64,000 nt of DNA, from positions 52,285 to 116,284 of the IMG/VR virus record IMGVR_UViG_3300029610_000357, one strand, 5' to 3'. The notes beneath the pieces were generated by a model. That model did no database searches. It was given only the letters and a program-made list of their open reading frames with translations, and had not been told where the DNA came from. The translations under genes and the position numbers were made by a program. This document shows positions 2,253 to 19,554 of this stretch, piece by piece; the stretch's first letter is position 1, and every line of letters starts with the position of its first letter. Source of the DNA: a virus (taxonomy: Duplodnaviria; Heunggongvirae; Uroviricota; Caudoviricetes).

Positions 2253-2262
2253 TTGGACATAG

Positions 2263-2335
<73 letters not shown>

Positions 2336-2519
2336 ACAAAAAGAGTACATTGTAACTACCAACAATGTACTCAAACTTAGAAAAGAGGTATAAATTATGA
2401 TTCCTACAAGAAATCTTAATAGCTTTGTAAATCTTTCTGAGGTATGAAACAACAGTAGAAAAGCGCAATAATCAAAACTTCACAAGAAAGGAGATAATAT
2501 GATTCCTCAGAAAGATTAA

Positions 2520-2591
2520 CAGGGATAACTGGATTTGAACCAGTGAATACAGCAGTCAAAGTGCTGTGCCTTACCGCTTGGCGATATCCCT
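2520..2591 (-). tRNA. tRNA-Gln(UUG)
   Basis: Acceptor AGGGATA/TATCCCT, anticodon arm CAGCA-CTTTGAC-TGCTG, T-arm ACTGG-TTCAAAT-CCAGT. Confidence 0.9.
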
Positions 2592-3204
2592 ATATGTATT
2601 TTAATTTTAAAGCAGGTCTTCACCTTACAGTCATTTGTGGAATAGTTTGTTCTGCAACATAGTAGATAAGTCTGAGCTTCGAGGAGCGACCTCTAACTTC
2701 TTACCTAAGTCTAAAAGACCAGTTCTATGACATGATCAATACATGCAATGTCAACCCACCATTCAGAATTAAGTTTTATTGTTATATACTCTATTAGCAT
2801 ATATATTCATTTTGAATTTGAACTTGCCCTTAACTGACTTGAGCGACATACCAGCGACTTTTCTTATACACTGTCTTTTGAACAGCTTCACATCAAACTA
2901 CATTATTTGGCTTTTCCACCTTTTACGTACCTGCCAGAGTACGCATTGAAGTGGATTATTCTCCACAGGAGCGTCTATTGTTGTAGCGAAAAGTTCTGTG
3001 CGTTAACCAGACCAAAATGCTGCACAATATCCATTTGCTTGAGAGTTTCTCTCTTGTCCATATCAGATCACTCCGACATAAAAAGAGACACAAAGAACGT
3101 ATCCGTACAATGTATCTCTCCAATTCGACATATGTGCCTAGAATATCTCTCGGACTCATGGCATTGAGTTTTATAACCGAGTTGCTTATGTTTTAAAATA
3201 CAAA
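2592..3204 (-). other. 613-nt ORF-free spacer inside the tRNA array (possible co-transcribed structured RNA)
   Basis: Flanked directly by tRNA-Gln and tRNA-Trp. Only short overlapping shadow ORFs without RBS, and no tRNA fold found by eye. Confidence 0.3.
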
Positions 3205-3276
3205 CACCCTAAGCTGGATTTGAACCAGCACGAACGGTTTTGGAGACCGTCATTCTACCAACTAAATTATTAGGGC
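3205..3276 (-). tRNA. tRNA-Trp(CCA)
   Basis: Acceptor GCCCTAA/TTAGGGT, anticodon arm ACGGT-CTCCAAA-ACCGT, T-arm GCTGG-TTCAAAT-CCAGC. Confidence 0.85.
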
Positions 3277-3283
3277 GATATTA

Positions 3284-3357
3284 CTGACATGACAGGACTC
3301 GAACCTGCAACACCAACGTCCGTAGCGTTGTGCTCTGTCCAGTTGAGCTACATGTCA
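3284..3357 (-). tRNA. tRNA-Arg(ACG)
   Basis: Acceptor TGACATG/CATGTCA, D-arm GCTC..GAGC, anticodon arm CAACG-CTACGGA-CGTTG, T-loop TTCGAGT. Confidence 0.9.
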
Positions 3358-3570
3358 ATAACGAATATGTATTTACCTCTCATACGTACACACTGGCGAG
3401 ACAATACATATTTCTAAAAAGCAACAGTGTGTAAGTATTGCTTTTCTAGGGCGAACTGAAGTGATGAACTCCATCAGAATATCAGAAGAGGTATACATTC
3501 CAATATCCACCAACCATCAGGGTGTTCGCATATTTTTTGGTTAATCTATCGTATAGTTACTAACCTAATC

Positions 3571-3656
3571 ATCCCTGTTGAGGGAATCGAACCCACTCGT
3601 GACCGAAGCCGCAAAATTTACAGTTTTGCCTGTCTCCTTAGCAGTATAAACAGGGA
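3571..3656 (-). tRNA. tRNA-Tyr(GUA), type II with long variable arm
   Basis: Acceptor TCCCTGT/ACAGGGA, anticodon arm GCAAAA-CTGTAAA-TTTTGC, variable arm GGCTTCGGTCAC, T-loop TTCGATT. Confidence 0.8.
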
Positions 3657-3695
3657 TATTAGCCCACAAGTCCGAAGAACATTGTAGGACAAACA

Positions 3696-3770
3696 TCACA
3701 CCAACGAGAGTCGAACTCGTATTGCATCCGTGAAAGGGATGTGTCCTAAAACCATTTAGACGATGGTGCG
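3696..3770 (-). tRNA. tRNA-Glu(UUC)
   Basis: Acceptor CGCACCA/TGGTGTG, Glu-type D-arm GTCT..AGGAC, anticodon arm CATCC-CTTTCAC-GGATG, T-arm ACGAG-TTCGACT-CTCGT. Confidence 0.85.
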
Positions 3771-3776
3771 ATTTAG

Positions 3777-3868
3777 CGTACGGACTGGGCTACGACCCCA
3801 GGATACACATGTTCGTATGTATACAGGATTAGCAATCCTGCGCATTAAACCAGCTCTGCCACCCGTAC
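3777..3868 (-). tRNA. tRNA-Ser(GCU), type II
   Basis: Acceptor GTACGGG/TCCGTAC, anticodon arm CAGGA-TTGCTAA-TCCTG, 22-nt variable arm, T-arm CTGGG-GTCGTAG-CCCAG (non-canonical T-loop). Confidence 0.8.
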
Positions 3869-4920: not shown

Positions 4921-5017
4921 CTTATATCCTTCCTTTCATATATCACTATTTTACCACCCCTTCAAAACACTAGGTTTTACCTAGGTTTCTGAGGGGTATT
5001 TAATGTGGTAATTCTGC
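4921..5017 (-). ncRNA. conserved structured element, copy 1 of 3
   Basis: Minus sense: TTACCAC-ATTAAATA-CCCCTCAGAAAC..hairpin..GTTTTGAAGGGG-TGGTAAAATAGTGATATATG-AAGGAAGGA. Homologous to 5107-5202 and 47683-47772. Confidence 0.45.
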
Positions 5018-5106
5018 TCACCACTCAAAATTTTACCTTGAAATACACTTTTTAGTATATATAATTAACTCTTATTTCCTTTTCGAAAATCTGATCTTTT
5101 GAGCAT

Positions 5107-5202
5107 TTCCTTATCCTTCCTTCCATATATCACTATTTTACCACCCCCTGAAGAACGTAGGCAGAACCTAGCGTTTTCAGGGTCAATTAATGTGGTAATT
5201 CT
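5107..5202 (-). ncRNA. conserved structured element, copy 2 of 3
   Basis: Minus sense: TTACCAC-ATTAATTGA-CCCTGAAAACGCTAGG-TTCTG-CCTACGTTCTTCAGGG-G-GTGGTAAAATAGTGATATATGGAAGGAAGGATAAGG. Confidence 0.45.
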
Positions 5203-5213
5203 TTTTGCTGGCC

Positions 5214-6068
5214 TTATTTTTTGTCAGAATTATAGTATTTGGTATATCTATTTAACTGCATTTCACTCTTACAAGAAGTACAATACTGTCTAAGCCGTCC
5301 TTTACGATGCTTTTTCTTTTTTGAGATGTCTCTAAAAGGTTCTCCACAACAGGAGCATACAGAAATCTCAGGATATCCAATAAAGTGAAGGTATCTGTTC
5401 CCAAGATTCTTGAAGTCTGTAATCTCAAGAGCAACATCTCCTGAATCGACAAGAATATCTACAGAGAAGTTTAAGCTATTAACTTTCTTGCTCATTGTTA
5501 TACAATCGCTTCTGAACAGCCTGCCGATTATTTGGCATCTACGTTCTCTTGTACCTACTGTATTACCCAATGAGAATAAATATTTGTAGTCTGTATTCAC
5601 CCAATTATTGTTTTGAGGATTCAGAGCATTATAATACTTGGCCAAGCAAAGAGCAGTGAAGAGAATCTTTTGATCTCTAAGATTCTCTAACCCATTTATG
5701 GTTTCCATTTCAGACTCATAGATCGGCAGTGAATCAATTTCCACAAGAGGATACTTTTTAGCTTTGTGAATGATCTCATCAATGCATGAATACCATTTAG
5801 CTTCTCTGTAGCTCTCACAGGACTCTTTTAAGAACTCATTGATAGTTTTATATACCTGTGCAGGTTCTAAGCCTTTCTCGTGGATGTAATACTTTGCAAG
5901 CAGGGTAGCAGTATATGGGATACTGCTTTCCAACTCTTTTGTTTCTAAAATTTTTTCTACCAGTGTTTTTTCATTCAGTACGATATTAATAACAATCAGC
6001 CTCCTCAAACATAGATGATTCAATTTGTTTAATAGTTTCAATGACGAAAGAATCTCCGTCATATTCAA
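5214..6068 (-). CDS. hypothetical protein with C-terminal zinc ribbon (CSCCG..CTSC); start uncertain
   Basis: ORF track. The 5' 83 nt overlap the upstream gene, so the true start may be internal. Confidence 0.5.
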   Translation of the reverse strand: MNMTEILSSLKLLNKLNHLCLRRLIVINIVLNEKTLVEKILETKELESSIPYTATLLAKYYIHEKGLEPAQVYKTINEFLKESCESYREAKWYSCIDEIIHKAKKYPLVEIDSLPIYESEMETINGLENLRDQKILFTALCLAKYYNALNPQNNNWVNTDYKYLFSLGNTVGTRERRCQIIGRLFRSDCITMSKKVNSLNFSVDILVDSGDVALEITDFKNLGNRYLHFIGYPEISVCSCCGEPFRDISKKKKHRKGRLRQYCTSCKSEMQLNRYTKYYNSDKK

Positions 6069-7128
6069 AATCTCCTGATTCAGCTCTTACAGGATAAGAG
6101 ATCTGGTGATAGTTTCTCTCTAAGAGTCTTTGGACAAGGATGTCTCCAAACATGTCCCATACAAACTGCTTACTCTTGCCATTGGTATAGCAGAGGTCAA
6201 GAAGAATGTCACAAGCTTTCTCAGGATCAGGAACAGCAGTGGCAACAGCTTCTCTGAACAACATGACTCGGTTATTGATGATGTCTGTTACATTTAGTCC
6301 AAAGACACCCCGGCCATTGATTAGAGCATTCAGGGTTTTCATTTTCTTTGAATACTCGCTGTATAACTTCTTAAGAGCATAATAATCATTCTTGTTGTAC
6401 TCATGATCTCTTTTGAGAATGGAGTAATCAAAATCTGTTTGTGTATTCAACTTCTTTAAGTAGCCATCAAACTCATCCTCAAAGAGCTTACAGATTCGAT
6501 TCATTACACAAGGCCCTGTACCTACAGGTAAGAACTTATAGTAGTGATCTAAGAATTCTGCTTCATCCTCTGTGATAGGTTCTGTATCAGCTTTCTTGAG
6601 CAATTCATCAATCGTGCATCCAAACCAGATAATACATTTATCGTTTGAAGCTTTCACATAATTTGTGTAATCCTTTCTCAGGTGAGAGTAAATGTAGATC
6701 ATGAAGTATGGTTTCTTGTCAGCTACGATTCTCTGATTGAATTCTTTTCGCTTACGATCCTTTGATGAGTCTTCAGGATGGATGTTGTTGTCTTTTCTGT
6801 TATACCAGTAAGATGGGATAGGTTTACACACAATGCCCTTCAATTTGTCAATCGAATTTTGTTGGTATAGCTGACCGCAAATGATTCTGTAATCCAGTTC
6901 TTTAAACTCATCACTGTCAGGAGAGTAATGAGACTGTACTTCAAACTGAGAAGTGATGATGTTTGTTGTGAAGCCAATTTCGTCTCCAAAGGCATCCTTG
7001 TAAGCTTTTAAAATGTCTTTTCGTTTAGGGACAATCTTGTTAGCTTTGCGTTGAGCACAAATGATTGATGGAAGAGGACGATTGTTTTCAACAAGTATTC
7101 TATTGTTAGTTGTGAAGAAGAGGTCTCC
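5986..7128 (-). CDS. YonO-like single-subunit two-barrel RNA polymerase candidate, exon 2
   Basis: Frame stays open upstream of the track start. Own translation from 7128 gives GDLFFTTNNRILVENNRPLPSIICAQRKANKIVPKRKD...LKGIVCKPIPSYWY. Length is 1143 nt (381 codons), joining in frame to exon 1. Confidence 0.6.
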   Translation of the reverse strand, partial: GDLFFTTNNRILVENNRPLPSIICAQRKANKIVPKRKDILKAYKDAFGDEIGFTTNIITSQFEVQSHYSPDSDEFKELDYRIICGQLYQQNSIDKLKGIVCKPIPSYWYNRKDNNIHPEDSSKDRKRKEFNQRIVADKKPYFMIYIYSHLRKDYTNYVKASNDKCIIWFGCTIDELLKKADTEPITEDEAEFLDHYYKFLPVGTGPCVMNRICKLFEDEFDGYLKKLNTQTDFDYSILKRDHEYNKNDYYALKKLYSEYSKKMKTLNALINGRGVFGLNVTDIINNRVMLFREAVATAVPDPEKACDILLDLCYTNGKSKQFVWDMFGDILVQRLLERNYHQISYPVRAESGDFEYDGDSFVIETIKQIESSMFEEADCY

Positions 7129-7464
7129 CGATGTACCCTCGGTTTCCCGATATTTATGGAGAAAGGGGACTAGACTATATCATTACACAGCATAGGTCTT
7201 ACACTGTGATGCTCGGCACTTCCCTTGGGGAGTTTCACCCTTTTGGTACTCTACTTGCTACCGATACCGTATTCCTCGAATATCAGTGCTTTGGATAGTC
7301 GTTTGACTTTCAATTTCTGCTTAGCACAGGATTACCACCGGCATTACCCGCTGAGGCTCCCCTGTTAGCATATGCGTTAACTTCCATTTCCTGAAGCTAC
7401 TGTACGTCACATATACACCTTACATTTGTAAGTTCACCGAGTTTTACTTCGACCAAGTAAACTA
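7129..7464 (-). ncRNA. group I self-splicing intron, ORF-less (336 nt)
   Basis: 5' exon ends UUCGAU. The intron guide GUCGAA (11 nt in) pairs with it, giving a U.G wobble at the splice site. The intron ends ..GGUACAUCG (terminal G). It contains GAUAUAGUCUAGUCC and is homologous to the intron at 56040-56387. Confidence 0.7.
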
Positions 7465-9114
7465 ATCGAAGTCGCAACCGTTAAGTGATTCACATGTATT
7501 ATCCCAATCATTGATCACACAAATGGATGGGAGATACTGGAACCAGTATGAAAGCTGCTCATTGTTCTTCACTTTAAGATTGACGATGTTATAATGGCTT
7601 GTCATTGGAGCTCTGAAGCAAGCTACTTCATCAACCTGTCTATCGATCCAATGCTTGTGATACATTTCTCCTGCTTTAAGCAATCCTGTAACTTCAAGTC
7701 CAAACATGGATTGCATGAGAGCATATGGATCACCAGCAACGATTGAATAATTACCTTTCACTTTGATGCGTCCGATCTTAGCATCTTGGATTCGTTTCTT
7801 GATGAGAGAATGAATCTTAGATCGAATGAAAGGATCTTTGATCATCTCAGGTTCAGCTATGAGTGCCTGAATGTATGTAAAAGCATCTGACTGTAAGATG
7901 TTCTTCTCAGTCATATTCTTACCTCGCAGGAAGAGCAGAGTCTTTCTGTAATCCATCCCAAGAATGTCTTTGATCTCTTTTATGGTTGGCTCACAAAGCT
8001 CTCTTATTTGGTCGTCTGTAAGATAATAGCTCTGTAAGAACTGATAGTTAAGATTCCTTTCAGTATCACATTCTTGTTCGGCTGTTTTGGCAAGAGCAAA
8101 GTGATAATCATACTTCTCAATGTTCTCTAAGTAGTCTTCCATAGAGTCATATGCATCCCATAGCTTAAACATAGATGTTGTAAGTATCACCTGAGCGTCT
8201 CTAACGTCCCTAGGATGGCCCCAAGCATCAATAATGGTATAAGTCTTAGCTACGTCCTCTGCAAAGGCTCTAAAGTCCATACAGTGAAGCATACCTTTAC
8301 AGAATGGCCATCCTCTCATGTTGCCAGATGGAAGAGGAGTATCATAATCTCCATTCAGTTCACCATTCCATTGTCTTGCAAGTTCTGGAAGAACTAATCC
8401 TTCTCCATCAGACCCATTGTGTACAAACTCTTGATCATCAAGAAGAGTTACTTCTGGTTCATCTGAGTTTGTATCATCCACATAAAGAGCTTGTCCCTTA
8501 AAGATCGTCTCACAGTCTTGTACAACAATCACTCCTGATGGTGGAGTAACAACTGTAGAAGAAGAGCAGAAGAGTGCTTTGTACGCTCCGAGCTTGTTTG
8601 GTATGATCGGAACTTCTTTATTCCTCCCGGCATCTACTTTCTCACAGAGAGCATCGTATACATTGTCACTGACAAAGATTACAACACTGTTCTTTAAGCC
8701 TCCTGTGGTTCCTAAGAAGAGATTGTAGTGGAGATCATTTACAATGAATCCATGCTTGCTGCAGTAGTCATAATCTTTCTTTGTGTCGAAGACCACTGTG
8801 AGGTAGTCTGTTTGGAATCGACATTTGTACAGATCATTGTAGAGTAGTGAGATAAGTTCTTTGCTTCCTCTGTTGGCTGAAAGCTCTTTGATCTTCTTTC
8901 GGATTCTTTTTGCTCTTATGTCTGAATCATAGTCATGGATCAATGAGTCAATTGTTCTTAATGCTTCAGAACTTGAAAGAGTAATAATGTCGTCTCCATT
9001 CTCCCTCGCTTCATTGAGTGGTAGAGAAAGTTTCCACTTCGCCTTTCTTAATCGGCTGCTGTGTAGTTTGTAAATATATTTCTGACTCGTTTTTTGCTTA
9101 GAAATAATGATCAC
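7465..9114 (-). CDS. YonO-like single-subunit two-barrel RNA polymerase candidate, exon 1
   Basis: 550 codons ending ...CESLNGCDFD. Splicing to exon 2 restores NGCDFDGD, resembling the NADFDGD/DxDGD metal-binding motif of two-barrel RNAPs. Confidence 0.6.
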
Positions 9115-9228
9115 TCCTTTTTTGATTTTTTATGTGTTGAGTGGAGAGAAGTTTTTGTAATTTTTAGCCTCTCCAAAACTTAACCTCTTAGTATAAAAAT
9201 TTCGGCGTCCATAATTTAAGTAATATTC

Positions 9229-9251
9229 TTAATGTTACTACGTAACATTAA
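9229..9251. promoter_or_regulatory. perfect 10-bp inverted repeat TTAATGTTAC-tac-GTAACATTAA in AT-rich leader of the RNAP gene
   Basis: Read directly. A half-site-like TTAATGTTAAT recurs at ~9281. Confidence 0.35.
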
Positions 9252-9340
9252 AAATATTATTAAATCATTTAATTTCTTTTTAATGTTAATTACTATTTAA
9301 TATTTAATTAATACATATCCTTATATTTATATACGGTTTT

Positions 9341-9374
9341 AAAAAAGACACGCTTTTATGCGGGTTTAAGATCC
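9341..9374 (-). promoter_or_regulatory. conserved 33-nt box, copy 1 (AAAAAAGACACGCTTTTATGCGGGTTTAAGATCC)
   Basis: Near-identical to 11324-11356. Minus sense contains CGCATAAAAG, resembling the ATCATAAA boxes of the right arm. Confidence 0.35.
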
Positions 9375-10502
9375 AATTCGGGGGATAAAACTGGGACCCA
9401 TGATCCAGTGCTTTTTGCCTCCTTGAAAGAGCATATCAACGACTTTTCGAACATCTGTTCCATAGCGAGCATATCTTTTTGACCAAAATTCTGTAGTAGA
9501 TAATTCATATACAGAAGTTAATGAATCGATTACGTCTTGAGGAGTTCCTTCTGGGAATTCTTTTAGACAACTGTAATAAGCTGTAAGATTTTTAATCAAC
9601 TCTTCCTTCTTTGACTGAGCATTTTTTAAAACTTTTGGTTTAAAAATTTGTTGAATTCTTTTCTGATAAGTATAGAATTCGTACTCTCTTAAGTAGCTGT
9701 GCTCATCTGGATAAAGATACTCAGGCTCGATCACATACTTAAAATAAAGTTTGGAAAACTCCTTATGAGATTTAAGTGCCTTTAGGAATTTTGGATAAAC
9801 TTCTGGATATAATCTCACAGTTGTAATGTCAAGATCGTGTTTTGGTATGCGGAGACTATCACATAAAGTATCTTCATAAATCTTACGTTCTTTTTCTGTG
9901 AGATCTCTGAGTGGTTCGAATGGACTGCTGCCACATACGATTCGTTTTTTCTGTCTGATGATTCCTCTATTTTCCATACTTACAAGCAGATTATAAAATC
10001 GTCCATGTGCTAAATTCTGCATACTCTCATAAGCTGTGTCGAAGTATGTACCAGGATATTTATCAAACTTATCAAGGTCGTAATCTTTCTTCTTTGCTGG
10101 AATGAGTCCAAGCACTTCACACCATTTGTTCTTATCCCAATTTTCATTGATGTGGTTGTCTAAGATATGGATGATCATCATTTCCATCATATAGTTGATT
10201 CCCATGAAAGGACTTCTAAGTTCCCAAGAGAATGGGTTCTCAATATATTCACCTTTGATCTTTGTGATTTTAATCTGACCATCTTTCTGCTTCTTTGTAC
10301 ATATGAAGTGATCAAGATTTGCTTTGTGGACTGCATAGTGACTCTTTCTGCCTTCTTTATCGATTCCAACTAATTGAAGAATGTCTGAGTACTTGTTGTA
10401 CTTGTGGCCTTCTTTCAGATTGGATAAATCGAAGAGATGTTGTTTTTCTTTCATGAACCAGAATTGTTCAGCTAAGTAATCGTTTCTTTCTTGTATCGTC
10501 AT
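9366..10502 (-). CDS. hypothetical protein (378 aa)
   Basis: ORF track. AGGAGG RBS (plus-strand CCTCCT at 10510-10515). No motif recognised. Confidence 0.6.
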   Translation of the reverse strand: MTIQERNDYLAEQFWFMKEKQHLFDLSNLKEGHKYNKYSDILQLVGIDKEGRKSHYAVHKANLDHFICTKKQKDGQIKITKIKGEYIENPFSWELRSPFMGINYMMEMMIIHILDNHINENWDKNKWCEVLGLIPAKKKDYDLDKFDKYPGTYFDTAYESMQNLAHGRFYNLLVSMENRGIIRQKKRIVCGSSPFEPLRDLTEKERKIYEDTLCDSLRIPKHDLDITTVRLYPEVYPKFLKALKSHKEFSKLYFKYVIEPEYLYPDEHSYLREYEFYTYQKRIQQIFKPKVLKNAQSKKEELIKNLTAYYSCLKEFPEGTPQDVIDSLTSVYELSTTEFWSKRYARYGTDVRKVVDMLFQGGKKHWIMGPSFIPRIGS

Positions 10503-11060
10503 TTTTGACCTCCTTTTTGCTGTTTCTTTTTGTTAATTCAATGAAAAAATGCATTTGTCTGAGTAATGACACTTTTCTTTCGATAAATTCACATTACCAC
10601 AGATGTAGAGTAAAATCAATAGTTTTCTGAAGAAAAAATAAAATTGTGCGAGCAATGACACTTTTTATTTCATTTAAGTACGTTTAAGGAGGCTTAGACT
10701 GGGATTTTTATGTCAAGTGTTTTTTGGAAATTTCTTAAAATAGTGCTTTCTTTGGCTGTTTTACTTGGTTTGTTCTGGATTTTTCTTTGACTTGTTGTAC
10801 TTAGATGGGTAGAAATATGGCTGTTTTATGCGATTGTACAAAAATAAAATAAATTAATTCTTTATATGCTAAAGTATTGACTTTTGAAAAATCAAGTGTT
10901 TTTTGAAAGAAATTTAAAAAAATTTTTACCGTGTGGAATTCTCAGAGAAGGGGTTTGCATTTATATAAGAAGAGCTTGGTTTTTGAAAAAATTTCAGAGA
11001 GATGGGTTTATAGCAGAACAGGTGTTCTATATTTTAGAGTGTGTTAAGAGGTGCGTTTCT

Positions 11061-11167
11061 GGGGAAAGTTTTTATGAGGGGGAGGGGTGTATGTGGGGGT
11101 GTTTGGAAAGAAATGTTGGGGATGTTTTTAGGGGGTTTTGAGGGGGTTAAATGGCGTAGATGTGGGG
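11061..11167 (+). repeat. cluster of nine G4-G5 tracts (G-quadruplex-prone)
   Basis: GGGG/GGGGG runs at 11061, 11078, 11084, 11095, 11118, 11131, 11142, 11164 and others, within ~107 nt of an otherwise AT-rich genome. Confidence 0.6.
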
Positions 11168-11323
11168 TGGAGAAACGTCTGGCTGAACTTGTGGTATAGA
11201 ATTACCAGCTATACAAATATCAGCAAAACTGCGATTTAAAAATAGTTTTAAGTAGCCCCCTAAACACTTGTAAAAGTCCGTAAATAACTATTTACTTGCG
11301 TTTTTGATCAGAAATAGATAGTC

Positions 11324-11356
11324 AAAAAAGCACGTATTTATGCGGGTTTGAGACCG
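11324..11356 (-). promoter_or_regulatory. conserved 33-nt box, copy 2 (AAAAAAGCACGTATTTATGCGGGTTTGAGACCG)
   Basis: Direct repeat of 9341-9374. Confidence 0.35.
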
Positions 11357-12327
11357 TTTGAAAAGATTTTTAAAAATAATTTTTTTAGGGTATTGCAATA
11401 TTTTCGTGGGCATGGTCTTATACAGTTGTTCAAACGAACAGGGAACTTGATAAAACAACAACCGGCAAGGGTTGTAAAACGTGCTTGCCAATATTTCAAC
11501 ATAAAAAGGGGGTAGCCCTACCCCTGTATAAAAATTGGGCGTGTACCTTGATAACTGAATAAGTCTGAATCCGTTCGGCAAGTCTCCGAACAGGTTCAAA
11601 AAATCAGTTTCTTTGGAAACTGAACGACAGGCTAAAACTCTGCCCTGTTACTCATTCGTGACAGGCAGACAAGTAAACCTTTGACTTATTGCCTGTACCC
11701 AATGTCACACGAACGTGGTACAGGATTTATAAGAAGTCGTTGCAAGTCCAAAGAAGTGTAGCAGATTTTTTGAATCGGTTCGCAAAAATACAGGTAGTGA
11801 CAGCCTGTAGACAAACTACCAAACAGACGAAAGACTTCCTAAACGATATATTTTATATTGCTTAGTATAGTCGATATGACAGGGTGTCAAACATTGACGG
11901 TTGACCCAAAACACGTTCACATACTATAAGTCCCTGTGGTGGTGGGGTCCTGTCTTTCAAGTGTTTGAGAAGCGTTGTTGTTGACACTATAACAGAGTAC
12001 CGCCCACGGTAGAAAGTTCTAACAGGCACGACAACGGCTCTCATTCGAGCTGGGTATATTGTGCATTGAATACTACTACTTATCTAGTTCAACGGTAGGA
12101 GACTAGACTCTGTGAAATAATAGGCTATGACAGGTGCAACCCCTGTATAGTATCGAGTGAGTGCATGAACACTTGCGAGCGGTCAAAAGTCCCTTTAGGG
12201 ATAATATTAGAACTCTGTGAGTTCATTAGAATACACCTAACAGGTGTGGTCTAATGAGTTCATAGGAACTCAATGCAACAAATACATATTTTTTAGGGTA
12301 CGACTGTATCCGGAATAGGAGTTTATC

Positions 12328-13305
12328 ATGAGTAGAAAATCAACAAAAACAACAACAGTAGCAAACATTACACTACCAGTCCGTAAAATGGACTTCACAG
12401 AAGCAACTAAAGAATTCCGTACTCTTTGTCGCAATTTCTACACAGATTTTGAGAAAGTCGCAGAGAACAGGGAAGCTCTACGAGCAGAGAAAACAGAGTG
12501 TGAAGAACACTTTGACACTCGAGTAAACAATGCTTTTGACGTATCCGAACCTGTGGATACAGACAAAGAATTACCAGCGGAGTATGCAGACCTTAGGAAT
12601 ATTCTAGAAAAATATTCTGTAATACAGGCTACAGGTCTGCTTTCTAAGGAAGATAATGACTATCTTTCTGCACTTTGCGATAAGTGGAAAAAAGCTGACG
12701 CAAAGATTAGAAACTTAAAAAATCCAGTGCCTGAGAAGTCTCTAGTTGTAGATGCAATCTATGACCTATACAAGGGATGCTCTACAGATATGAGTGAAAA
12801 CCGTGACGGCTACGCTCGTAAAGTCAAGGGGTTCTTTGAATCTAAAGGCATGACACTAACTTCTTATGGTTGGGATGTGTTCAATGCTTCCATTGGGTTC
12901 AATGTGAATAATGACAAAAACTTCTTAGAGACAGGTAAGTTCTTCAACCCTATCAAAAAGAGCAAGTTTGTAGAAAGATTCTATATGTTCTTCTGTGAGG
13001 GGTTTGTAAGTGCAGATTGCTTCCCTAAGACTAAGAAAGCACGTCATGTAGATGCAGAAGAACAGGCACCAGTGGCACCTCAGAAAGTTGAAACACCTGA
13101 GGAAGTACATGAAAAGTGTGCAGACGCTCGTGCTGAAATCTCAGCTCAGAAACTGGGTACAACTGAGTCCAAACCAATGGACAAAATGACAGTGGCAGAG
13201 TTACGTACTTTCATTAAGAAACATGATACAACTGCCAAAGTATCTAAGTTGAAAAAAGCTGACTTAGTAGCTATGGCTACAAAGTTCACAAATGTAGCAG
13301 CTTAA
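12328..13305 (+). CDS. hypothetical protein with C-terminal SAP/HeH (Rho-N-like) motif
   Basis: First gene of the rightward arm. GGAG RBS. C-terminus MTVAELRTFIKKHDTTAKVSKLKKADLVAMATKF. Confidence 0.6.
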   Translation: MSRKSTKTTTVANITLPVRKMDFTEATKEFRTLCRNFYTDFEKVAENREALRAEKTECEEHFDTRVNNAFDVSEPVDTDKELPAEYADLRNILEKYSVIQATGLLSKEDNDYLSALCDKWKKADAKIRNLKNPVPEKSLVVDAIYDLYKGCSTDMSENRDGYARKVKGFFESKGMTLTSYGWDVFNASIGFNVNNDKNFLETGKFFNPIKKSKFVERFYMFFCEGFVSADCFPKTKKARHVDAEEQAPVAPQKVETPEEVHEKCADARAEISAQKLGTTESKPMDKMTVAELRTFIKKHDTTAKVSKLKKADLVAMATKFTNVAA

Positions 13306-13317
13306 TCTTACACAAAT

Positions 13318-13338
13318 AAATACCCATAGTGGGTATTT
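13318..13338 (+). terminator. palindromic hairpin AAATACCCA-tag-TGGGTATTT after the gene end (weak U-tract)
   Basis: Read directly, 13 nt after the stop. Confidence 0.35.
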
Positions 13339-13344
13339 GTATAA

Positions 13345-13415
13345 GCCTGAGTGGGTACTCACTTCCAACACCTCCGAAGTGAGTACGTCACAGGGTTCGA
13401 CTCCCTGTACAGGTT
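13345..13415 (+). ncRNA. tRNA-like element: long hairpin plus canonical T-arm and acceptor-like stem
   Basis: GCCTGAG..GTACTCACTTC-caacacctcc-GAAGTGAGTAC..CAGGG-TTCGACT-CCCTG-TACAGGT. No D-arm or 7-nt anticodon loop. Confidence 0.35.
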
Positions 13416-13466
13416 ATAACTATCAATTTTGAATTGGGTACGATTGTGCCCAGAAAGGGGTATACC

Positions 13467-13763
13467 ATGATGTATACAAACAATTCAACAAATGACACGA
13501 TGCACGAAAACTACGTCAACAGCTTACAGGCAGATATTGACAAGCTCAAAGCAACTCTGCCAACAATTACAGACACCTATAAAAAAGACCAATGTATTAA
13601 ATACATTAAGGCTTTACAGGAAGAGAAACAGGAATGTAAATACGAAACCTGTGCACTCTGTGGTGGAATCTGTGACCGTTGTTACTACACAGAAGCCTGT
13701 GAACGCTACAATGGAACAGGAACGGAAACACCAGTAGTCCGCAATGGGTTTGTAATTGGATAA
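13467..13763 (+). CDS. small Cys-rich protein
   Basis: ATG 13467 follows a GGGG RBS. CALCGGICDRCYYTEAC. Confidence 0.5.
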   Translation: MMYTNNSTNDTMHENYVNSLQADIDKLKATLPTITDTYKKDQCIKYIKALQEEKQECKYETCALCGGICDRCYYTEACERYNGTGTETPVVRNGFVIG

Positions 13764-13775
13764 GGGGGTATAACC

Positions 13776-14078
13776 ATGAGTAAGAAAGTTAAAGTAGCTG
13801 TCTGTAAAGGCAGACACGAAATCCCACAGGCAATAGATGGGGCAATCTTTGAACAGACAATAACGGAAATGGATCCATTTAGTCTGTTATTAGAAGCATC
13901 AAAGAGATTGTTCTCTGACTTTGCTTTACGTAGTGGAGATAGAGTAGACCTGTATGTAACAGGTCTAACAATGGCGACTCTAGCCATAGTAAATGCTTGT
14001 CTTTCGACAGGCATAAGGATTGTATGCTATCACTATGATAGAGAAACAGGGAAATATATCCCACAGCCTATGCTGTAA
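13776..14078 (+). CDS. hypothetical protein (100 aa)
   Basis: ORF track; RBS GGGGG. Confidence 0.55.
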   Translation: MSKKVKVAVCKGRHEIPQAIDGAIFEQTITEMDPFSLLLEASKRLFSDFALRSGDRVDLYVTGLTMATLAIVNACLSTGIRIVCYHYDRETGKYIPQPML

Positions 14079-14103
14079 GACAAACTAAAACAGAAACCAA
14101 AAA

Positions 14104-14136
14104 AGCACGGAAGATAAAATAATTCCGTGCTTTTTC
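14104..14136 (+). terminator. rho-independent terminator
   Basis: AGCACGGA-loop-TCCGTGCT followed by TTTTT. Confidence 0.85.
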
Positions 14137-14160
14137 TATGCTTAAAGAAAGGAAATCAAA

Positions 14161-14448
14161 ATGAAAAAAATCAAAGCATTTTTAAAAGACAGAACAATAG
14201 AAATCATTGGATGCTCTCTAATGATTGTAGCAGTAGTTGGTTGTTATTTAATTGGGCCAAACACTCGCACAATCACAGGCACATACAACAACGGAACCAT
14301 CACGACCAAAGATGGAAACGTATGGAAAGTGTCTAATCACAACGGAATCAGCACAAACAAATCTGTTAAAGTATCTGTCAAGTTTGATACAAAAGGAACT
14401 GACAGCGTACTTGATGACGAAATTGTAGAAATCACAGAAATCAGATAG
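14161..14448 (+). CDS. membrane-anchored small protein
   Basis: One N-terminal TM helix (IEIIGCSLMIVAVVGCYLIG). Confidence 0.6.
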   Translation: MKKIKAFLKDRTIEIIGCSLMIVAVVGCYLIGPNTRTITGTYNNGTITTKDGNVWKVSNHNGISTNKSVKVSVKFDTKGTDSVLDDEIVEITEIR

Positions 14449-14468
14449 AAAAGAAAGGAAAAACAATC

Positions 14469-14948
14469 ATGAAAAAATATACAGCAACATCACAGGCAAT
14501 TAACTATGCAACAAAACACTTGTTAGACAGACCAGGGACATGGGCATCTGCGGAAACTGGAAAGATGGTAACTCGTTGGGATGATGAGCTTAAGTTTGAA
14601 TGTGAGTCAGATAAAGGAGTATTCTACACCGACAATATCATGGAAGCTGTAGGTTGGCTGTACGCAGAGCAAGACCCATATAAAGAAGAAAGCAAACCAG
14701 AATCAGAAGTAAAATTCACAACAGAAGCGAGTGTACAGGTTACAGATGAGTACATTGAGAAAGCGAAAAGGGAAGCCAAAAGAGAAATCTTGGAACATTT
14801 ACAGGCTCATTTAGATGTAATGGCACAGCAGTCTTGGGAACTTTACATAGACGAAGGTGTAGAACAAGGGAATGATATGCACTTAGGAGAGCAGAGAGCC
14901 TTTGCAATGACGCTCGCACAGGTAAACACAATTCTTAAAAACTTATAG
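14469..14948 (+). CDS. hypothetical protein
   Basis: ORF track. Shares the motif E.IE.AKREA..E.L with the next gene. Confidence 0.6.
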   Translation: MKKYTATSQAINYATKHLLDRPGTWASAETGKMVTRWDDELKFECESDKGVFYTDNIMEAVGWLYAEQDPYKEESKPESEVKFTTEASVQVTDEYIEKAKREAKREILEHLQAHLDVMAQQSWELYIDEGVEQGNDMHLGEQRAFAMTLAQVNTILKNL

Positions 14949-14965
14949 GAAAGGAAACTAAGACC

Positions 14966-15517
14966 ATGAGAACAAAAAGAGAATTAATGACAGAAATTTT
15001 AGAAACAGCTGTAATCGAATCTGTAAAATCAGATTGTGAAGTTGTCCATTACGATGTAGAAGTACACGGGGAGATGCACAGATTACAAGTAATTACAGGT
15101 CAATTTTTTGTTGAGTTTCATCATCTGGAAGATGGAGAGTATAACTACAATTGTCCACACTTAGTCTATACTTTCGATCCATGGGAAATCGAAGAAGCGT
15201 TGGATACTTTCTTTATGATGGATGGAGAAACAGGAGAACTTCATGTTGACGAAAGCAAAATCGAACTTGGTATTGACTCTGATTTTACACCAGAAGCGAA
15301 ACCAGAAATCACACGAGAAGATATCGAGGAAGCGAAAAGAGAAGCACAAATTGAGATGCTTCATCGTATTAAAACCTATAGCCTTTCTGTAAGTTTTGAA
15401 AACGCAAAGAACCTCAACAAAACAGGGAACTGCTTTTATGATGGTAAAATAGAAGCATATAAAGACATTAATGAAATGTGTGAAGCTTTGCTATACCGAT
15501 TAGGAGAAGAAGATTAA
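14966..15517 (+). CDS. hypothetical protein (distant paralog of 14469..14948)
   Basis: EDIEEAKREAQIEMLHRI versus EYIEKAKREAKREILEHL. Confidence 0.6.
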   Translation: MRTKRELMTEILETAVIESVKSDCEVVHYDVEVHGEMHRLQVITGQFFVEFHHLEDGEYNYNCPHLVYTFDPWEIEEALDTFFMMDGETGELHVDESKIELGIDSDFTPEAKPEITREDIEEAKREAQIEMLHRIKTYSLSVSFENAKNLNKTGNCFYDGKIEAYKDINEMCEALLYRLGEED

Positions 15518-15594
15518 AGCAAATCAATACATAGAGGGGTAGTGATTTGATATATATCTAGTACAAATTATATATATTTGTAGCTAGAAAATCA

Positions 15595-15633
15595 GCCTTA
15601 GATAGCCAGTAAAGGAAATCTAAGGCTTTTTTT
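15595..15633 (+). terminator. rho-independent terminator
   Basis: AGCCTTAGAT-loop-ATCTAAGGCT followed by TTTTTTT. Confidence 0.85.
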
Positions 15634-15685
15634 GTATCTATAAATATATTAATTCTTGTGGATGCACAAGAGAAAGGAAGAGCCT

Positions 15686-15958
15686 ATGGGATTAACAAAA
15701 AAAGAAATCTGTGAACGCTCAGAAACCATTGCATATTACAGTGGTTTATGTGGCGTAGAAGTGAAACAAATTACTTATGGAATTGAAGACTACATGTACT
15801 GTGAGTCTGGAGCTTGGGGTGGTGGTAAGAGCTATCACAAACTGAAAATCCAGACAGACATCAAAGGAAATATGTTCGTTAAATTACACGGGTATAGACT
15901 ATTCTTAGATGAATTCATTCGTACAGGAAAGGAACAGACAAAGCTATGGGAACAATAA
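15686..15958 (+). CDS. hypothetical protein
   Basis: ATG 15686 after a GGAAG RBS. The track start at 15656 is less likely. Confidence 0.5.
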   Translation: MGLTKKEICERSETIAYYSGLCGVEVKQITYGIEDYMYCESGAWGGGKSYHKLKIQTDIKGNMFVKLHGYRLFLDEFIRTGKEQTKLWEQ

Positions 15959-16233
15959 CATCTTTAACATTGTTTGAACAACAATGTATGGAACAAAAGA
16001 TATTCAAACTGAAAACACTAAAAGATTTTGGTCATGCAACTTACAAAGGATTTACACTTCGCAATGGTTATAGATACGGAATCACAGAGGAAGACGGAAT
16101 CCATGTTGCGACTTCAAACTGGCAGCAAGGGAATTTCATTTACATGTACTTCTACAATGAATTAACAAACCAGTGGGAAGGATTGTGGATTGACTTAGAA
16201 GACGTAGAAATTGTGGAAGAGAAAGGAAATTAA
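15946..16233 (+). CDS. hypothetical protein
   Basis: ORF track; overlapping (coupled) start. Confidence 0.5.
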   Translation: MGTITSLTLFEQQCMEQKIFKLKTLKDFGHATYKGFTLRNGYRYGITEEDGIHVATSNWQQGNFIYMYFYNELTNQWEGLWIDLEDVEIVEEKGN

Positions 16234-16234
16234 G

Positions 16235-16675
16235 ATGGAAATTATAATTATTGCAAGTGCACTTTTTGGGATTATGACCGGATGGGTGTTAGGATACTCA
16301 ATTAAAGAAGCTGAGGTAAAAGATACAAAGAACTTAGTCGATAATCTGAACAAGTTAACCAGCAAAATAACCGAAGTCGAAAAGGAACTGGCAGAAACCA
16401 AAAAGGAAAGAGATTACGAAAAAAGCATGAACATTCATTGGTTCAATGAATATGAAAGAATACGAGAAAAACATTATAGAGAAATGTCAAAACTCCGCCA
16501 GCAAACGGACTTTTTCGCAGCTGATGGAATAGACAAGTTTGTGGAAATGCGAAAACTAAAAAGCAAATGTTCAGAAGCTGTCAAGTATGCTATGAAAATG
16601 TCTCATCCAGACAACAATGGAAACGCCGAAGACTTTATGAAGTTCAGAAAGCTTTATAAAGAAATAACAGAATAG
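16235..16675 (+). CDS. membrane-anchored coiled-coil protein with C-terminal J-domain-like HPD segment
   Basis: TM helix, then VKYAMKMSHPDNNGNAEDFMKFRKLYKEI. Paralog of 40360..40794. Confidence 0.55.
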   Translation: MEIIIIASALFGIMTGWVLGYSIKEAEVKDTKNLVDNLNKLTSKITEVEKELAETKKERDYEKSMNIHWFNEYERIREKHYREMSKLRQQTDFFAADGIDKFVEMRKLKSKCSEAVKYAMKMSHPDNNGNAEDFMKFRKLYKEITE

Positions 16676-16687
16676 GAAGTGAAACAT

Positions 16688-16984
16688 ATGTGGGAAATTG
16701 GAGATAGAGTGGTTGTTACTAAAGCCCCAGGTAGAACAATTGTAGCTAAGCTAGGCTACAAGGGAACAGTTATTGATGTAGTAGATACAAGCGTACTTGT
16801 TGAATTTGATAAATACATTGGTGGACATAGTGGAAGTTGGAGTTCTCGTAACGGAAAGTTCGGACATTGTTATTGGCTACATCAGCTTGACGATGCAGAC
16901 ACAATTGGGGCTTATGTAGACTTTGCTTTAAGAGAAGAAGACTGTGTGTGTAAGAAAATCAAAAGAAAAAACAACTTCTACTAA
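16688..16984 (+). CDS. KNNYY-tail family member 1 (group A)
   Basis: MWEIGDRVVV...VEFDKYIGGHSG...; ends KRKNNFY*. ATG 16688 preferred over GTG 16679. Confidence 0.8.
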   Translation: MWEIGDRVVVTKAPGRTIVAKLGYKGTVIDVVDTSVLVEFDKYIGGHSGSWSSRNGKFGHCYWLHQLDDADTIGAYVDFALREEDCVCKKIKRKNNFY

Positions 16985-17002
16985 AAGAAAGGCAAGGTAA
17001 AC

Positions 17003-17302
17003 ATGAGAGAACTTAAACTTGAAGATTGTAAAGTTGGGATGACTCTTAAGCTAAAGGAAGATTGTCCTTTTAGAAAGTATTGGGAAATAGATCCTAAGGA
17101 ACCGGTAAAGTGCATTGTCGTAGCAATGAACAGGAGTCGAAAAGATAACATTTTTGTAGATATCTACTATGAACATGAGCGAAAATGTACCCCAAAGAAT
17201 TGGTATTTCTATACAGAGGATTCATTAATAGACACTAACGATGATGAACTAATCTCAAAAAACTTAGAGTATCCGAACAAGCGAAAGAACAATTATTACT
17301 AA
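17003..17302 (+). CDS. KNNYY-tail family member 2 (group B)
   Basis: LKLEDCKVGMTLKLKEDCPF; ends KRKNNYY*. Confidence 0.8.
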   Translation: MRELKLEDCKVGMTLKLKEDCPFRKYWEIDPKEPVKCIVVAMNRSRKDNIFVDIYYEHERKCTPKNWYFYTEDSLIDTNDDELISKNLEYPNKRKNNYY

Positions 17303-17312
17303 GAGGTGTAAT

Positions 17313-17639
17313 ATGCAGAAAGAAAGAGAAATTCAATTTGAAGATTGTCATATTGGCGATGTTTTTAAGTTAGATAGACGCTCGCCATGGGTTATGGAAT
17401 GGATAATGGAATCAAATGGATACATCCCTAGAGAAGAAATCACAGCAGAGATTGTACATATGATAAATAATGGTGACATCAAAGAAGTTGGAATAAATGT
17501 TTATATAGGTAAAGCTTCATATGATCATTATGATACTTCTTATCTCCGAGAGGGAAGTAGGTATAAGGAAGACAATCTTGAAATGAATCTTAAAATGAAA
17601 AATCGTATCAAAGCAGGAAGAAAGAACAATTATTATTAG
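17313..17639 (+). CDS. KNNYY-tail family member 3 (group B)
   Basis: IQFEDCHIGDVFKLDRRSPW; ends GRKNNYY*. Confidence 0.8.
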   Translation: MQKEREIQFEDCHIGDVFKLDRRSPWVMEWIMESNGYIPREEITAEIVHMINNGDIKEVGINVYIGKASYDHYDTSYLREGSRYKEDNLEMNLKMKNRIKAGRKNNYY

Positions 17640-17649
17640 GAGTGGTTAT

Positions 17650-17958
17650 ATGAAGACAAAAGAAAGGGGAATTCGATTCGAAGATTGCCATGTTGGAGAT
17701 GTACTTAGGTTAAAAACAAGATGTCCTTTTGTGGACTTTTACCTTACATCTGAAGGAATTCCTGTGGCAAAAGAAGATAAGGTCACCGCAACAGTAGTTC
17801 ATAAAGGAAAAAATATTCTTGATGTAATAGTACATGTAAATGGAAAAAGATGTGCACTATATTGGGATTGTTGGCTTGCAAGTCCTACGGCTTATCGTGA
17901 ACATAATCTTCACATTAATGTCGATTCAAAGATTAATCGAAAGAACAACTATTATTAG
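17650..17958 (+). CDS. KNNYY-tail family member 4 (group B)
   Basis: IRFEDCHVGDVLRLKTRCPF; ends NRKNNYY*. Confidence 0.8.
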   Translation: MKTKERGIRFEDCHVGDVLRLKTRCPFVDFYLTSEGIPVAKEDKVTATVVHKGKNILDVIVHVNGKRCALYWDCWLASPTAYREHNLHINVDSKINRKNNYY

Positions 17959-17983
17959 ATATAAGAGAAAGGAAAATAAGGCT

Positions 17984-18277
17984 ATGGGATATTTTAAAGT
18001 AGGAGATAGAGTAGAAGTTATTAAAAGCCATACCGAGGATTCATGTATTGATCACTATGCTCCTGTAGGGCTTAAAGGAACTGTAGTTTATACAGAACCG
18101 AGACATTTGACAAAGCAAATAGCTGTTGAGTTTGATAAGTCTTTTAAAGAAGGACACGGTTGTGATGGAAAAGTAAGAGGTAAGCGAGGGCAGTGGTATG
18201 AATATGATCCACATTCCAATATATATTGGAAAAATTGCTTAAAAATCTTATCCAAAAAGAAAAACAACTATTACTAA
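17984..18277 (+). CDS. KNNYY-tail family member 5 (group A)
   Basis: MGYFKVGDRVEVIK...VEFDKSFKEGHG; ends KKKNNYY*. ATG 17984 after an AGGAAA RBS; the track start at 17840 overlaps the previous gene. Confidence 0.75.
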   Translation: MGYFKVGDRVEVIKSHTEDSCIDHYAPVGLKGTVVYTEPRHLTKQIAVEFDKSFKEGHGCDGKVRGKRGQWYEYDPHSNIYWKNCLKILSKKKNNYY

Positions 18278-18324
18278 AGGTATTTCAAAATCAGTGGAGT
18301 GATTTTTGTTAATACATGAAGAAA

Positions 18325-18349
18325 GGCGGGATTTATTCCCGTCTTTTTT
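18325..18349 (+). terminator. rho-independent terminator splitting the array
   Basis: GGCGGGA-tttat-TCCCGTC followed by TTTTTT. Confidence 0.75.
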
Positions 18350-18370
18350 CAAAACAGAAAGGAAATTAAG

Positions 18371-18766: not shown

Positions 18767-18902
18767 ATTTGAAACAGTAATGAAGTTAATTTGTTGGATT
18801 GCAGCAGTGACATTGGCATGGATGCACGTTTCAATTGTTGCAGTGATTGCACTTGCATTGGTTGGAACTTTTGGAAGCGAGGTTGATTTGAGTGCAAAGT
18901 AG
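18759..18902 (+). CDS. small membrane protein (47 aa)
   Basis: MNRFETVMKLICWIAAVTLAWMHVSIVAVIALALVGTF; two hydrophobic helices. Confidence 0.4.
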   Translation: MNRFETVMKLICWIAAVTLAWMHVSIVAVIALALVGTFGSEVDLSAK

Positions 18903-19212: not shown

Positions 19213-19226
19213 AGAGAGGTGTGAGG

Positions 19227-19544: not shown

Positions 19545-19554
19545 GGTGGTGTAA

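Follow-up and report, generated by a model that had tools for sequence, protein, structure and literature searches.

The minus strand between positions 9114 and 5986 of the analysed phage DNA (64,000 nucleotides, hereafter the window) very probably carries one gene, which encodes a single-subunit two-barrel RNA polymerase (RNAP) of the YonO family and is split by a group I intron without an open reading frame (ORF). Both the enzyme family and the kind of intron are already known; the annotation is what is corrected, as genes listed as two or three "hypothetical proteins" hide a complete polymerase. The YonO family is abundant (of 8,000 scored candidates 2,766 proteins reached E<=1e-5, and a relative is encoded at 470 IMG/VR loci), and unrelated introns occupy the same catalytic-loop site in three of its lineages.

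Gene structure and splice junction

Exon 1 (7465..9114, minus strand, codons 1-550) matches PHROG 25339 with E=1.5e-175 and starts with GTG, following the calls in relatives, and exon 2 (5986..7128, minus strand) comprises codons 551-930 with the TAA stop at 5986-5988 and matches PHROG 35857 (E=1.4e-63). The minus-strand ORF 9114..7465 ends with ...SLNGCDFD and is directly followed by TAG, the first codon of the intron in the exon-1 frame; positions 7128..5986 translated in frame start with GDLFFTTNNRILV... and are open as far as the TAA. Removal of the 336 nt at 7129-7464 results in 930 codons with D548-F-D550-G-D552, the intron being located exactly between the D550 and G551 codons of the Mg-binding DFDGD loop. 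These coordinates and the NGCDFDGD junction of an approximately 930-aa product had been proposed in the earlier note and proved to be exact by retranslation and by comparison with uninterrupted relatives. Exon 1 encodes the beta-like barrel residues D236 (8407-8409), R267 (8314-8316), and K273-G274 (8293-8298), together with R501-x-P503 (7606-7614) and D548-F-D550 (7465-7473). The first codons of exon 2, G551-D552 (7123-7128), complete the loop, and the same exon holds the codons of the invariant D644/K647 motif (6838-6849) and of a C-terminal part that is helical.

The uninterrupted 930-aa protein P0001 is 97% identical to the spliced product and reads ...NGADHDGDLFFTTSNK... across the junction. 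In the IMG/VR sibling L009, whose nucleotide identity is 99% for exon 1 and 94.5% for exon 2, the junction is contiguous (GACTTCGAT|GGGGAC), and the L003-type site reads GATCACGAT|GGCGAC, so that L009 and L003/P0001 are uninterrupted exactly at the insertion point of the window intron. Because P0001 and L009 read through it, the reading frame at the junction is not a matter of chance. Silent changes are clustered near this site. Codon differences from relatives are mostly synonymous (98 synonymous versus 24 nonsynonymous against L003), and both exons are under purifying selection. Megablast of positions 5000-25000 of the window against GenBank phages gave no match, and full-text literature searching returned nothing relevant on YonO together with a group I intron, nor on an Enterocloster phage RNA-dependent RNA polymerase (RdRP).

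Group I intron

The insert (7129..7464, minus strand) was identified as a group I intron by its Rfam match, empty-site alleles, and covariation. The Rfam Intron_gpI model RF00028 is matched over its full length with 22.2 bits, less than half of the gathering score of 50, and is visible only under an E-value threshold (E=0.0027 when 801 nt were searched and 0.22 for the whole window); at the gathering threshold the intron is not called. The exon sequence ACUUCGAU base-pairs with the internal guide GUCGAAGU (7446-7453), placing U.G at the splice site, and this P1 pair is present in four of four aligned introns; at the same site of phage c-st GGAU paired with GUCC can be read from the sequence. 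P7 is formed by GACUAU (7295-7300) with AUAGUC (7173-7178), a long-range helix by CUCGGU (7436-7441) with GCCGAG (7212-7217), and P8 by the hairpin at 7186-7208; P4/P5 is also identifiable. The intron ends ...CAUCG with the terminal G (omega-G) at 7129, and a terminal G also ends the introns of L004, L007, L008, and c-st. In the RNAalifold analysis with counting of pairs, 98% of cells are paired, and 26 pairs are changed on both sides versus 12.3±2.2 in shuffled alignments. In the 5' half of the intron the helices are labelled only tentatively, as two hairpins that covary sit between the long-range helix and P4.

The MAFFT alignment of the c-st and window introns was discarded as unreliable, these being different introns that share one site, and an intein was ruled out, since the insert contains no long ORF and its first codon is a stop. 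In L010, L011, L004, and L008 an HNH_3 (+NUMOD4) ORF of 157-171 aa lies between intron positions 144 and 155, unlike the window copy, which contains no endonuclease ORF. Elsewhere in the window there was no group I intron signal, not even in the 447-nt gap that separates the two DNA pol III alpha ORFs.

Family membership and predicted fold

In tblastn against SPbeta YonO the window gene gave E=1e-19 with 26% identity over residues 122-688, and BLASTP of P0001 against YonO gave E=4e-28 with the YonO DNDGD aligned to DHDGD/DFDGD. D548, D550, and D552 are kept by all 78 relatives compared, and eight of these have Ser in place of G551. In the alignment of the window clade, YonO, Perkons, TR-TP2, and 0305phi8-36 gp99 the residues D236, R267, K273-G274, R501-x-P503, and D548/D550/D552 are invariant across the wider YonO family. 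Besides the metal loop, the universal residues described for QDE-1 are D709, R738, K743, R962, and P964, of which the Asp and the two basic residues belong to the beta-like barrel and R-x-P to the beta-prime-like one (PMC2919709); judging from motif order and spacing, D236, R267, K273, R501, and P503 would be their equivalents. Pfam returned nothing at E<=1 for the window protein (halves or spliced) or for YonO itself, and neither the single sequence nor the family profile found more than noise in PDB sequence searches.

The predicted model of the spliced protein is of high confidence (pLDDT 88.8, pTM 0.84) and contains two double-psi beta-barrels (DPBB) in one polypeptide. Its best structural neighbours are QDE-1, RDR2, the Thermus-phage P74 gp62 / P23-45 gp96 and crAss phi14:2 RNAPs, and isolated DPBB domains. 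Direct homology to SPbeta YonO and the predicted fold thus support the YonO-like identity claimed in the earlier note; the two-barrel RNAP neighbours which it had anticipated were found, QDE-1 and crAss RNAP included, and the second barrel with conserved basic residues is present (D236, R267, and K273-G274, invariant in the YonO family). The closest solved structures are those of the RNA-dependent enzymes QDE-1 and RDR2, and the PDB copy searched contains no YonO structure; therefore the template preference rests on 26–28% identity to YonO.

By homology with SPbeta YonO the enzyme is most likely a DNA-dependent RNAP for late phage genes. In the proposed mechanism the pre-mRNA of the polymerase gene would be made by another polymerase, and the intron would fold and excise itself by guanosine-initiated two-step transesterification, leaving a ligated mRNA for the 930-aa enzyme, while translation of unspliced RNA would end at the intron's TAG and give only a 550-aa fragment without G551 and D552. 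In the mature protein the beta-like barrel (D236, R267, K273) and the beta-prime-like barrel (R501, P503, D548, D550, D552) would form one active site, and the enzyme would transcribe late phage genes from DNA independently of the host polymerase. The late genes lie outside the window.

Alternative interpretations

The spliced protein could instead be an RdRP of QDE-1/RDR2 type that might, for example, amplify or copy RNAs of the phage or the host. The cellular RdRPs are its best structural matches, relatives match Pfam RdRP PF05183 (E=4.4e-14 for P0008, 50% identical, and a precomputed match in many others), and GenBank homologs are labelled "RNA-dependent RNA polymerase"; however, these labels derive from the Pfam family name, and YonO, the sole characterised member of the phage branch and a direct homolog of the window protein, is DNA-dependent and serves late-gene transcription (PMC5467207). 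Since, in addition, the window contains no RNA-silencing-type partners, this interpretation is considered improbable.

A second alternative is that the two ORFs are never joined, being either a pseudogene killed by insertion or halves that are translated apart and assembled as a split enzyme. Such halves are annotated as separate proteins by gene callers and GenBank (P0004, P0006, P0007; CST179/CST178 of c-st; Enterocloster phage CB473P3), and jumbo phages do have split beta and beta-prime subunits (PMC2919709). Yet the break falls inside a five-residue metal loop, no in-frame ATG, GTG, or TTG occurs within the first 95 codons of exon 2, both exons are under purifying selection, the insert bears group I hallmarks with covariation, and intron-less and intron-bearing alleles coexist at 94–99% exon nucleotide identity, all of which makes unjoined halves highly unlikely compared with a single spliced polymerase gene.

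Transcription signals and the putative partner gene

The earlier note had linked the polymerase with a sigma-like gene at 43096 and with ATCATAAA boxes as parts of the phage's own transcription programme. The existence of the sigma-like ORF was confirmed (E=3e-21 to a PHROG sigma factor; Pfam regions 2 and 4, below threshold), but the polymerase served by such a factor would be that of the host and not the YonO-like enzyme. ATCATAAA is only mildly enriched in the window (17 observed versus 9.1 expected). Its extended form ATCATAAA-NN-AATAGAGRAA is limited to positions 25633, 25808, 27852, and 28069, and a weaker copy lies at 25473. These 4-5 sites in two intergenic clusters are confined to 25.4–28.1 kb and show no tie to the polymerase. 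The motif was rejected as a window-wide signal. A sigma-70 promoter scan around the polymerase gene gave 17 sites, fewer than in shuffles (26.3).

Directly downstream of the polymerase lies a conserved gene of about 259 aa (5214..5993, minus strand), whose product has helical and winged-helix domains and a C-terminal Cys4 zinc ribbon (C213, C216, C238, C241). Its ORF is open up to 6068, and the likely start is near 5993, overlapping the polymerase stop, with GGAGG at 6001-6007. In every one of 80 loci the winged-helix/zinc-ribbon gene follows directly 3' of the polymerase gene, and its product is likely a DNA-binding or initiation partner of the enzyme. A terminator-like hairpin found by consensus scan only (4970..4984, minus strand), downstream of this gene, possibly marks the end of the polymerase-partner transcription unit. 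The upstream 378-aa ORF (9366-10502), considered as a second conserved partner, was rejected, as it was present in only six sibling loci (jackhmmer). More speculatively, the YonO-type polymerases throughout this large clade of gut phages may work as machines of two components, and the catalytic loop (DxD|GD) and the ID|KxKG motif would be recurrent homing sites; this wider reading is at present rather doubtful.

Comparison with known systems

Phage group I introns of the subgroup IA type (T4 td, Twort) have extra stems after P7. The window intron resembles them in a stretch of about 75 nt with two hairpins that separates P7 from the 3' strand of the long-range helix and in the insertion at a conserved site of an essential gene, and its relatives in the endonuclease ORF located in the loop after P4'/P6; Rfam has a single general group I model without subgroup models, and it is on that model that the window intron scores 22 bits.

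YonO of SPbeta was characterised as a single-subunit two-barrel DNA-dependent RNAP which drives late-gene transcription (Forrest et al. 2017, PMC5467207). The window protein is homologous to it over residues ~122-690 (E=4e-28), with both barrels on one chain and with the DxDGD triad, R-x-P, and K-G motifs in common, and both come from ~130-kb Firmicutes phages. They differ in sequence (26–28% identity) and length (839 aa in YonO and 930 aa here, with extra N- and C-terminal helical regions), and yonO in the SPbeta record has no intron. YonO also has a zinc-ribbon tail at its C-terminus; in the window, a zinc ribbon resembling that tail belongs to the separate downstream protein. Whether YonO recognises promoters alone or requires additional factors was left open in 2017 (PMC5467207), and the strictly linked winged-helix/zinc-ribbon gene is a concrete candidate for this question: it could encode the missing promoter-recognition or initiation factor, being TFE/TFIIE-alpha-like in domain make-up.

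The eukaryotic silencing enzymes QDE-1 and RDR2 (2j7n, 7y7p, 7w82, 7w84), which prefer an RNA template, are 11–17% identical to the window protein and were missed by the family sequence profile. The Thermus-phage P74 gp62 / P32 gp64 / P23-45 gp96 (8f5m, 8f72, 8h2m) and crAss phi14:2 (6vr4) enzymes are also single-chain two-barrel phage RNAPs, but they have no detectable sequence similarity to it, and their sizes and accessory domains are different; the crAss phi14:2 RNAP is virion-packaged and of ~2,200 aa.

A close parallel for the intron is the PhiPA3 virion RNAP subunit gene with a group I intron and its HNH endonuclease gp210, for which a competition phenotype was shown (Birkholz et al. 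2024, PMC11620839). In PhiPA3 and in the loci of the window family a self-splicing-type intron is located in a two-barrel RNAP gene beside the conserved catalytic aspartates; PhiPA3 and the window's relatives also have an HNH homing endonuclease in the intron, and intron-plus and intron-minus relatives coexist. The gene that hosts the PhiPA3 intron belongs to a Pseudomonas jumbo phage and encodes a beta-prime-like subunit of the multisubunit type, whereas the window enzyme is a single chain, and in the window intron the endonuclease ORF was lost or never present. By analogy, the intron/endonuclease polymorphism at DxD|GD and ID|KxKG among 94–99%-identical phages could play a role in phage-phage competition. 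Together, the catalytic-loop introns of the YonO family and the jumbo-phage RNAP gene split next to the codons of its catalytic aspartates are a clear case in nature of homing that targets the invariant codons of an active site.

Structure of the Split Polymerase Gene

The polymerase gene lies on the minus strand in two exons. Exon 1 (9114..7465) is an ORF of 550 codons with a GTG start, the one chosen by gene callers in relatives, and its C-terminal end ...CESLNGCDFD is followed immediately by TAG. Exon 2 (7128..5986) is an in-frame translation of 380 codons, which begins GDLFFTTNNRILVENN... and ends with TAA at 5986-5988; no ATG, GTG, or TTG is found in frame within its first 95 codons. In silico excision of the 336 nt at 7129-7464 gives a 930-aa product with the loop D548-F-D550-G-D552, and by this translation the coordinates, the junction, and the product length read from the sequence in the earlier note were all right. 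The presence of an intron-split gene is confirmed.

The database protein P0001 (930 aa, 97% identical to the window product and representing 1,028 member sequences) has no interruption, with NGADHDGDLFFTTSNK spanning the junction, and in its contig L003 the polymerase is one ORF. Since the codon differences between the window and L003 comprise 98 synonymous and 24 nonsynonymous ones, both halves of the gene are considered to be under purifying selection.

Enzyme Family and Probable Function

In a tblastn search of GenBank phages the SPbeta yonO gene was matched with E=1e-19 and 26% identity over residues 122-688, with closer homologs, of which several are annotated as "RNA-dependent RNA polymerase", in c-st, Enterocloster, Thomasclavelia, and Psychrobacillus phages. 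BLASTP of P0001 against YonO (E=4e-28) aligned the loop with DNDGD of YonO. Pfam search gave no match in the window protein and none in YonO, and the 50% identical protein P0008 falls in the RdRP family PF05183 (E=4.4e-14), a match precomputed for many relatives.

Eight residues were listed by Ruprich-Robert and Thuriaux as invariant across all two-barrel polymerases, in QDE-1 being D709, R738, K743, R962, P964, D1007, D1009, and D1011 (PMC2919709). An alignment of the window clade with YonO, Perkons, TR-TP2, and 0305phi8-36 gp99 shows D236, R267, K273-G274, R501, P503, D548, D550, G551, and D552 among its invariant columns; at the level of sequence they match the two-barrel pattern in the expected order, and they are kept in 77-78 of 78 close relatives, except G551, which is Ser in 8. 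The AlphaFold2 model built on 78 sequences (pLDDT 88.8, pTM 0.84) had as top Foldseek matches in PDB maize RDR2 (E=3.4e-17), QDE-1 (~1e-15), and Arabidopsis RDR2, followed by the RNAPs of phages P74 (gp62) and P32 (gp64), while beta-prime subunits appeared only at E~0.1. The outcome by which the earlier note would have been refuted, absence of a double-psi barrel fold from the prediction, therefore did not occur. According to these data the interpretation as a YonO-like two-barrel RNAP is supported, with YonO homology, invariant residues, and structural neighbours all in agreement.

YonO is characterized as a DNA-dependent RNAP with an essential aspartate triad and without a trigger-loop homolog, which transcribes the SPbeta late operon and whose need for a promoter-recognition factor was left open (PMC5467207; PMC8270828). 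By homology, the same role may be assigned to the window enzyme with moderate confidence. The alternative to this DNA-dependent role is RNA-dependent activity, as named in the annotation of several phage homologs and in the PF05183 family, and we regard it as quite improbable. For the preferred YonO-like polymerase splicing would precede activity and be required for it, since the break parts D550 from G551-D552.

Identity of the Insert and Its Mobility

The 336-nt insert is a group I intron. The Rfam Intron_gpI model matches 7150-7474 (minus strand) over its full length with 22.2 bits and E=0.0027 in an 801-nt search, against a gathering score of 50 and with E=0.22 in a search of the entire window; taken alone, this match is weak evidence. 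The final base of exon 1 is U, and pairing of exon ACUUCGAU with intron GUCGAAGU (7446-7453) results in U.G wobble pairing at the splice site; the 3'-terminal base of the intron is G (7129), and a possible P7 is formed by GACUAU (7295-7300) with AUAGUC (7173-7178). In the alignment of the window intron with three diverged same-site copies (loci L007, L004, and L008) from 77-83%-identical genes RNAalifold predicted 91 pairs, 25 with compensatory changes, and the structure with P7 added was paired in 98% of cells. Changes on both sides were found in 26 pairs versus 12.3 +- 2.2 in shuffles (none of 500 reached 26), falling to 1-4 when partner columns were slid. The covarying helices include the long-range CUCGGU/GCCGAG (C-G to U-A), P8, and several hairpins. 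Two hairpins occupy the stretch of about 75 nt that separates P7 from the 3' side of the long-range helix; they resemble stems P7.1/P7.2 of phage introns of subgroup IA, the candidate subgroup for this intron. The helices of its 5' half are labelled tentatively.

In L004, L008, L010, and L011 the intron is enlarged by a segment, located between its positions 144 and 155, with the gene for a homing endonuclease of the HNH_3 (+NUMOD4) type; the intron of the window has no ORF. Sibling phages in IMG/VR (contigs of 70-134 kb) are 98-99% identical to the window in exon 1 and 94-98% in exon 2. Among them L009 lacks the insert and has the same site sequence as the window (GACTTCGAT|GGGGAC), L012 to L015 carry the same insert (336/337 nt), and L010 and L011 carry it with a segment of about 575 nt containing a 171-aa ORF. 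Among the best 80 IMG/VR loci the polymerase gene is in one piece in 74 and interrupted in 6, every one in the sibling group of the window.

Within the close relatives L003 and L009-L015 (92-99% nucleotide identity in the exons) every stage of an intron homing cycle is present alongside the others: same-sequence empty site, diverged empty site, ORF-less intron, intron with HNH ORF, and two introns. The diverged empty site is that of L003, where the loop is DHDGD and dense, mostly silent changes relative to the window surround the site, a cluster that would fit either co-conversion or endonuclease avoidance.

Downstream Gene for a Probable Partner

The partner ORF lies directly downstream on the minus strand at 5214-5993, its frame being open up to 6068; GGAGG at 6001-6007 precedes it, and it overlaps the stop codon of the polymerase gene. 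Its product, with a winged helix and a Cys4 zinc ribbon, is homologous to c-st CST177 (E=2e-23), and the C-terminal CxxC...CxxC segment of this product is similar to the tail at the C-terminus of YonO from SPbeta (E=0.009). Profile search gave 161 relatives, the four Cys being invariant in all, and a homolog adjoins the polymerase downstream on the same strand in 80 of 80 IMG/VR polymerase loci. Because of this linkage and the DNA-binding-type fold it is reasonable to consider the partner as a candidate initiation or specificity factor. Some homologs of about 375 aa (P0134, P0138, P0140, and P0144) bear a GIY-YIG domain (PF01541), which suggests that endonuclease modules are fused or inserted in the partner gene too.

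Other Elements of the Window

The earlier note also tentatively connected the polymerase with a sigma-like gene and with ATCATAAA boxes in a transcription programme of the phage's own. The 176-aa ORF at 43096-43626 (plus strand) matches PHROG 351 (E=3e-21), with Pfam Sigma70 r2 and r4 scores just under the cut-offs. Transcription directed by the phage is plausible, but the enzyme on which a sigma factor would act is that of the host. The ATCATAAA motif occurs 17 times in the window versus 9.1 expected, and the extended intergenic repeat ATCATAAA-NN-(A/C)ATAGAG(A/G)AA is located on the plus strand at 25473, 25633, 25808, 27852, and 28069; four or five copies share ATCATAAA-NN-AATAGAGRAA in two intergenic clusters upstream of plus-strand genes, and none was found elsewhere in the window. 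The extended box may serve in regulation or as a promoter specific to the phage; no link between the boxes and the polymerase was found.

Phage replication genes include DnaB, RecD2-like helicase, DHH phosphoesterase, and DNA polymerase III alpha split into two plus-strand ORFs, 54630-56111 (PHP plus N-terminal part) and 56559-58961 (fingers plus HhH), with no Rfam intron signal in the 447-nt gap. A full-length ROOL RNA (2594-3205, minus strand; 306 bits, gathering score 99) is surrounded by seven minus-strand tRNA genes (Thr, Gln, Trp, Arg, Tyr, Glu, and Ser; 2262-3868). At 32482-32631 (plus strand) the Rfam tRNA model (42.5 bits) detects an element with canonical acceptor, D, and T arms and 93 nt in place of the anticodon-arm core, at which ARAGORN called no tRNA; the element may represent either a tRNA with an intron or a mimic of tRNA.

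Recurrent Insertion at Conserved Codons

The polymerase of Clostridium phage c-st, 38% identical to that of the window, is interrupted at the same point (MDMD|GD) by a different intron of 317 nt, which ends in G and forms a U.G pair of its own (GGAU/GUCC). In Enterocloster phage CB473P3 the gene is broken twice, after NGCDFD and after QQNELD. The second break (~3060-3494 of the CB473P3 locus L092) shares its site, in the invariant ID|KxKG motif, with a second insert of L011 (6834-7971), which lies between D644 and K645, has a 21.9-bit Rfam group I match, and includes an ORF of 189 aa; at this position (about 6846/6847) the window gene is uninterrupted. In the alignment of the wider family D644 and K647 do not vary, and therefore both insertion sites fall within the gene's most conserved codons.

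Both records present the split polymerase as separate fragment CDSs with introns unannotated. In c-st (AP008983, 3001-6110) exon 1 is annotated as a YonO-homolog N-terminal fragment and exon 2 is called a hypothetical protein, and the label "YonO homolog, C-terminal only" was given to CST177, the separate partner gene that follows; in CB473P3 (OP172757, 842-4256) all pieces are "hypothetical protein".

In summary, this member of the YonO family is new, while the family itself, this kind of mobile intron, and an analogous site are already known; the general interest is modest, and the value for further research lies in the partner gene and the recurrent homing sites. The published parallel is phage PhiPA3, likewise with an RNAP gene split by a group I intron at conserved aspartates: its virion RNAP subunit gene is interrupted at a site bordering the second conserved aspartate by an intron encoding the HNH endonuclease gp210, which gives PhiPA3 a competitive advantage over PhiKZ (PMC11620839).
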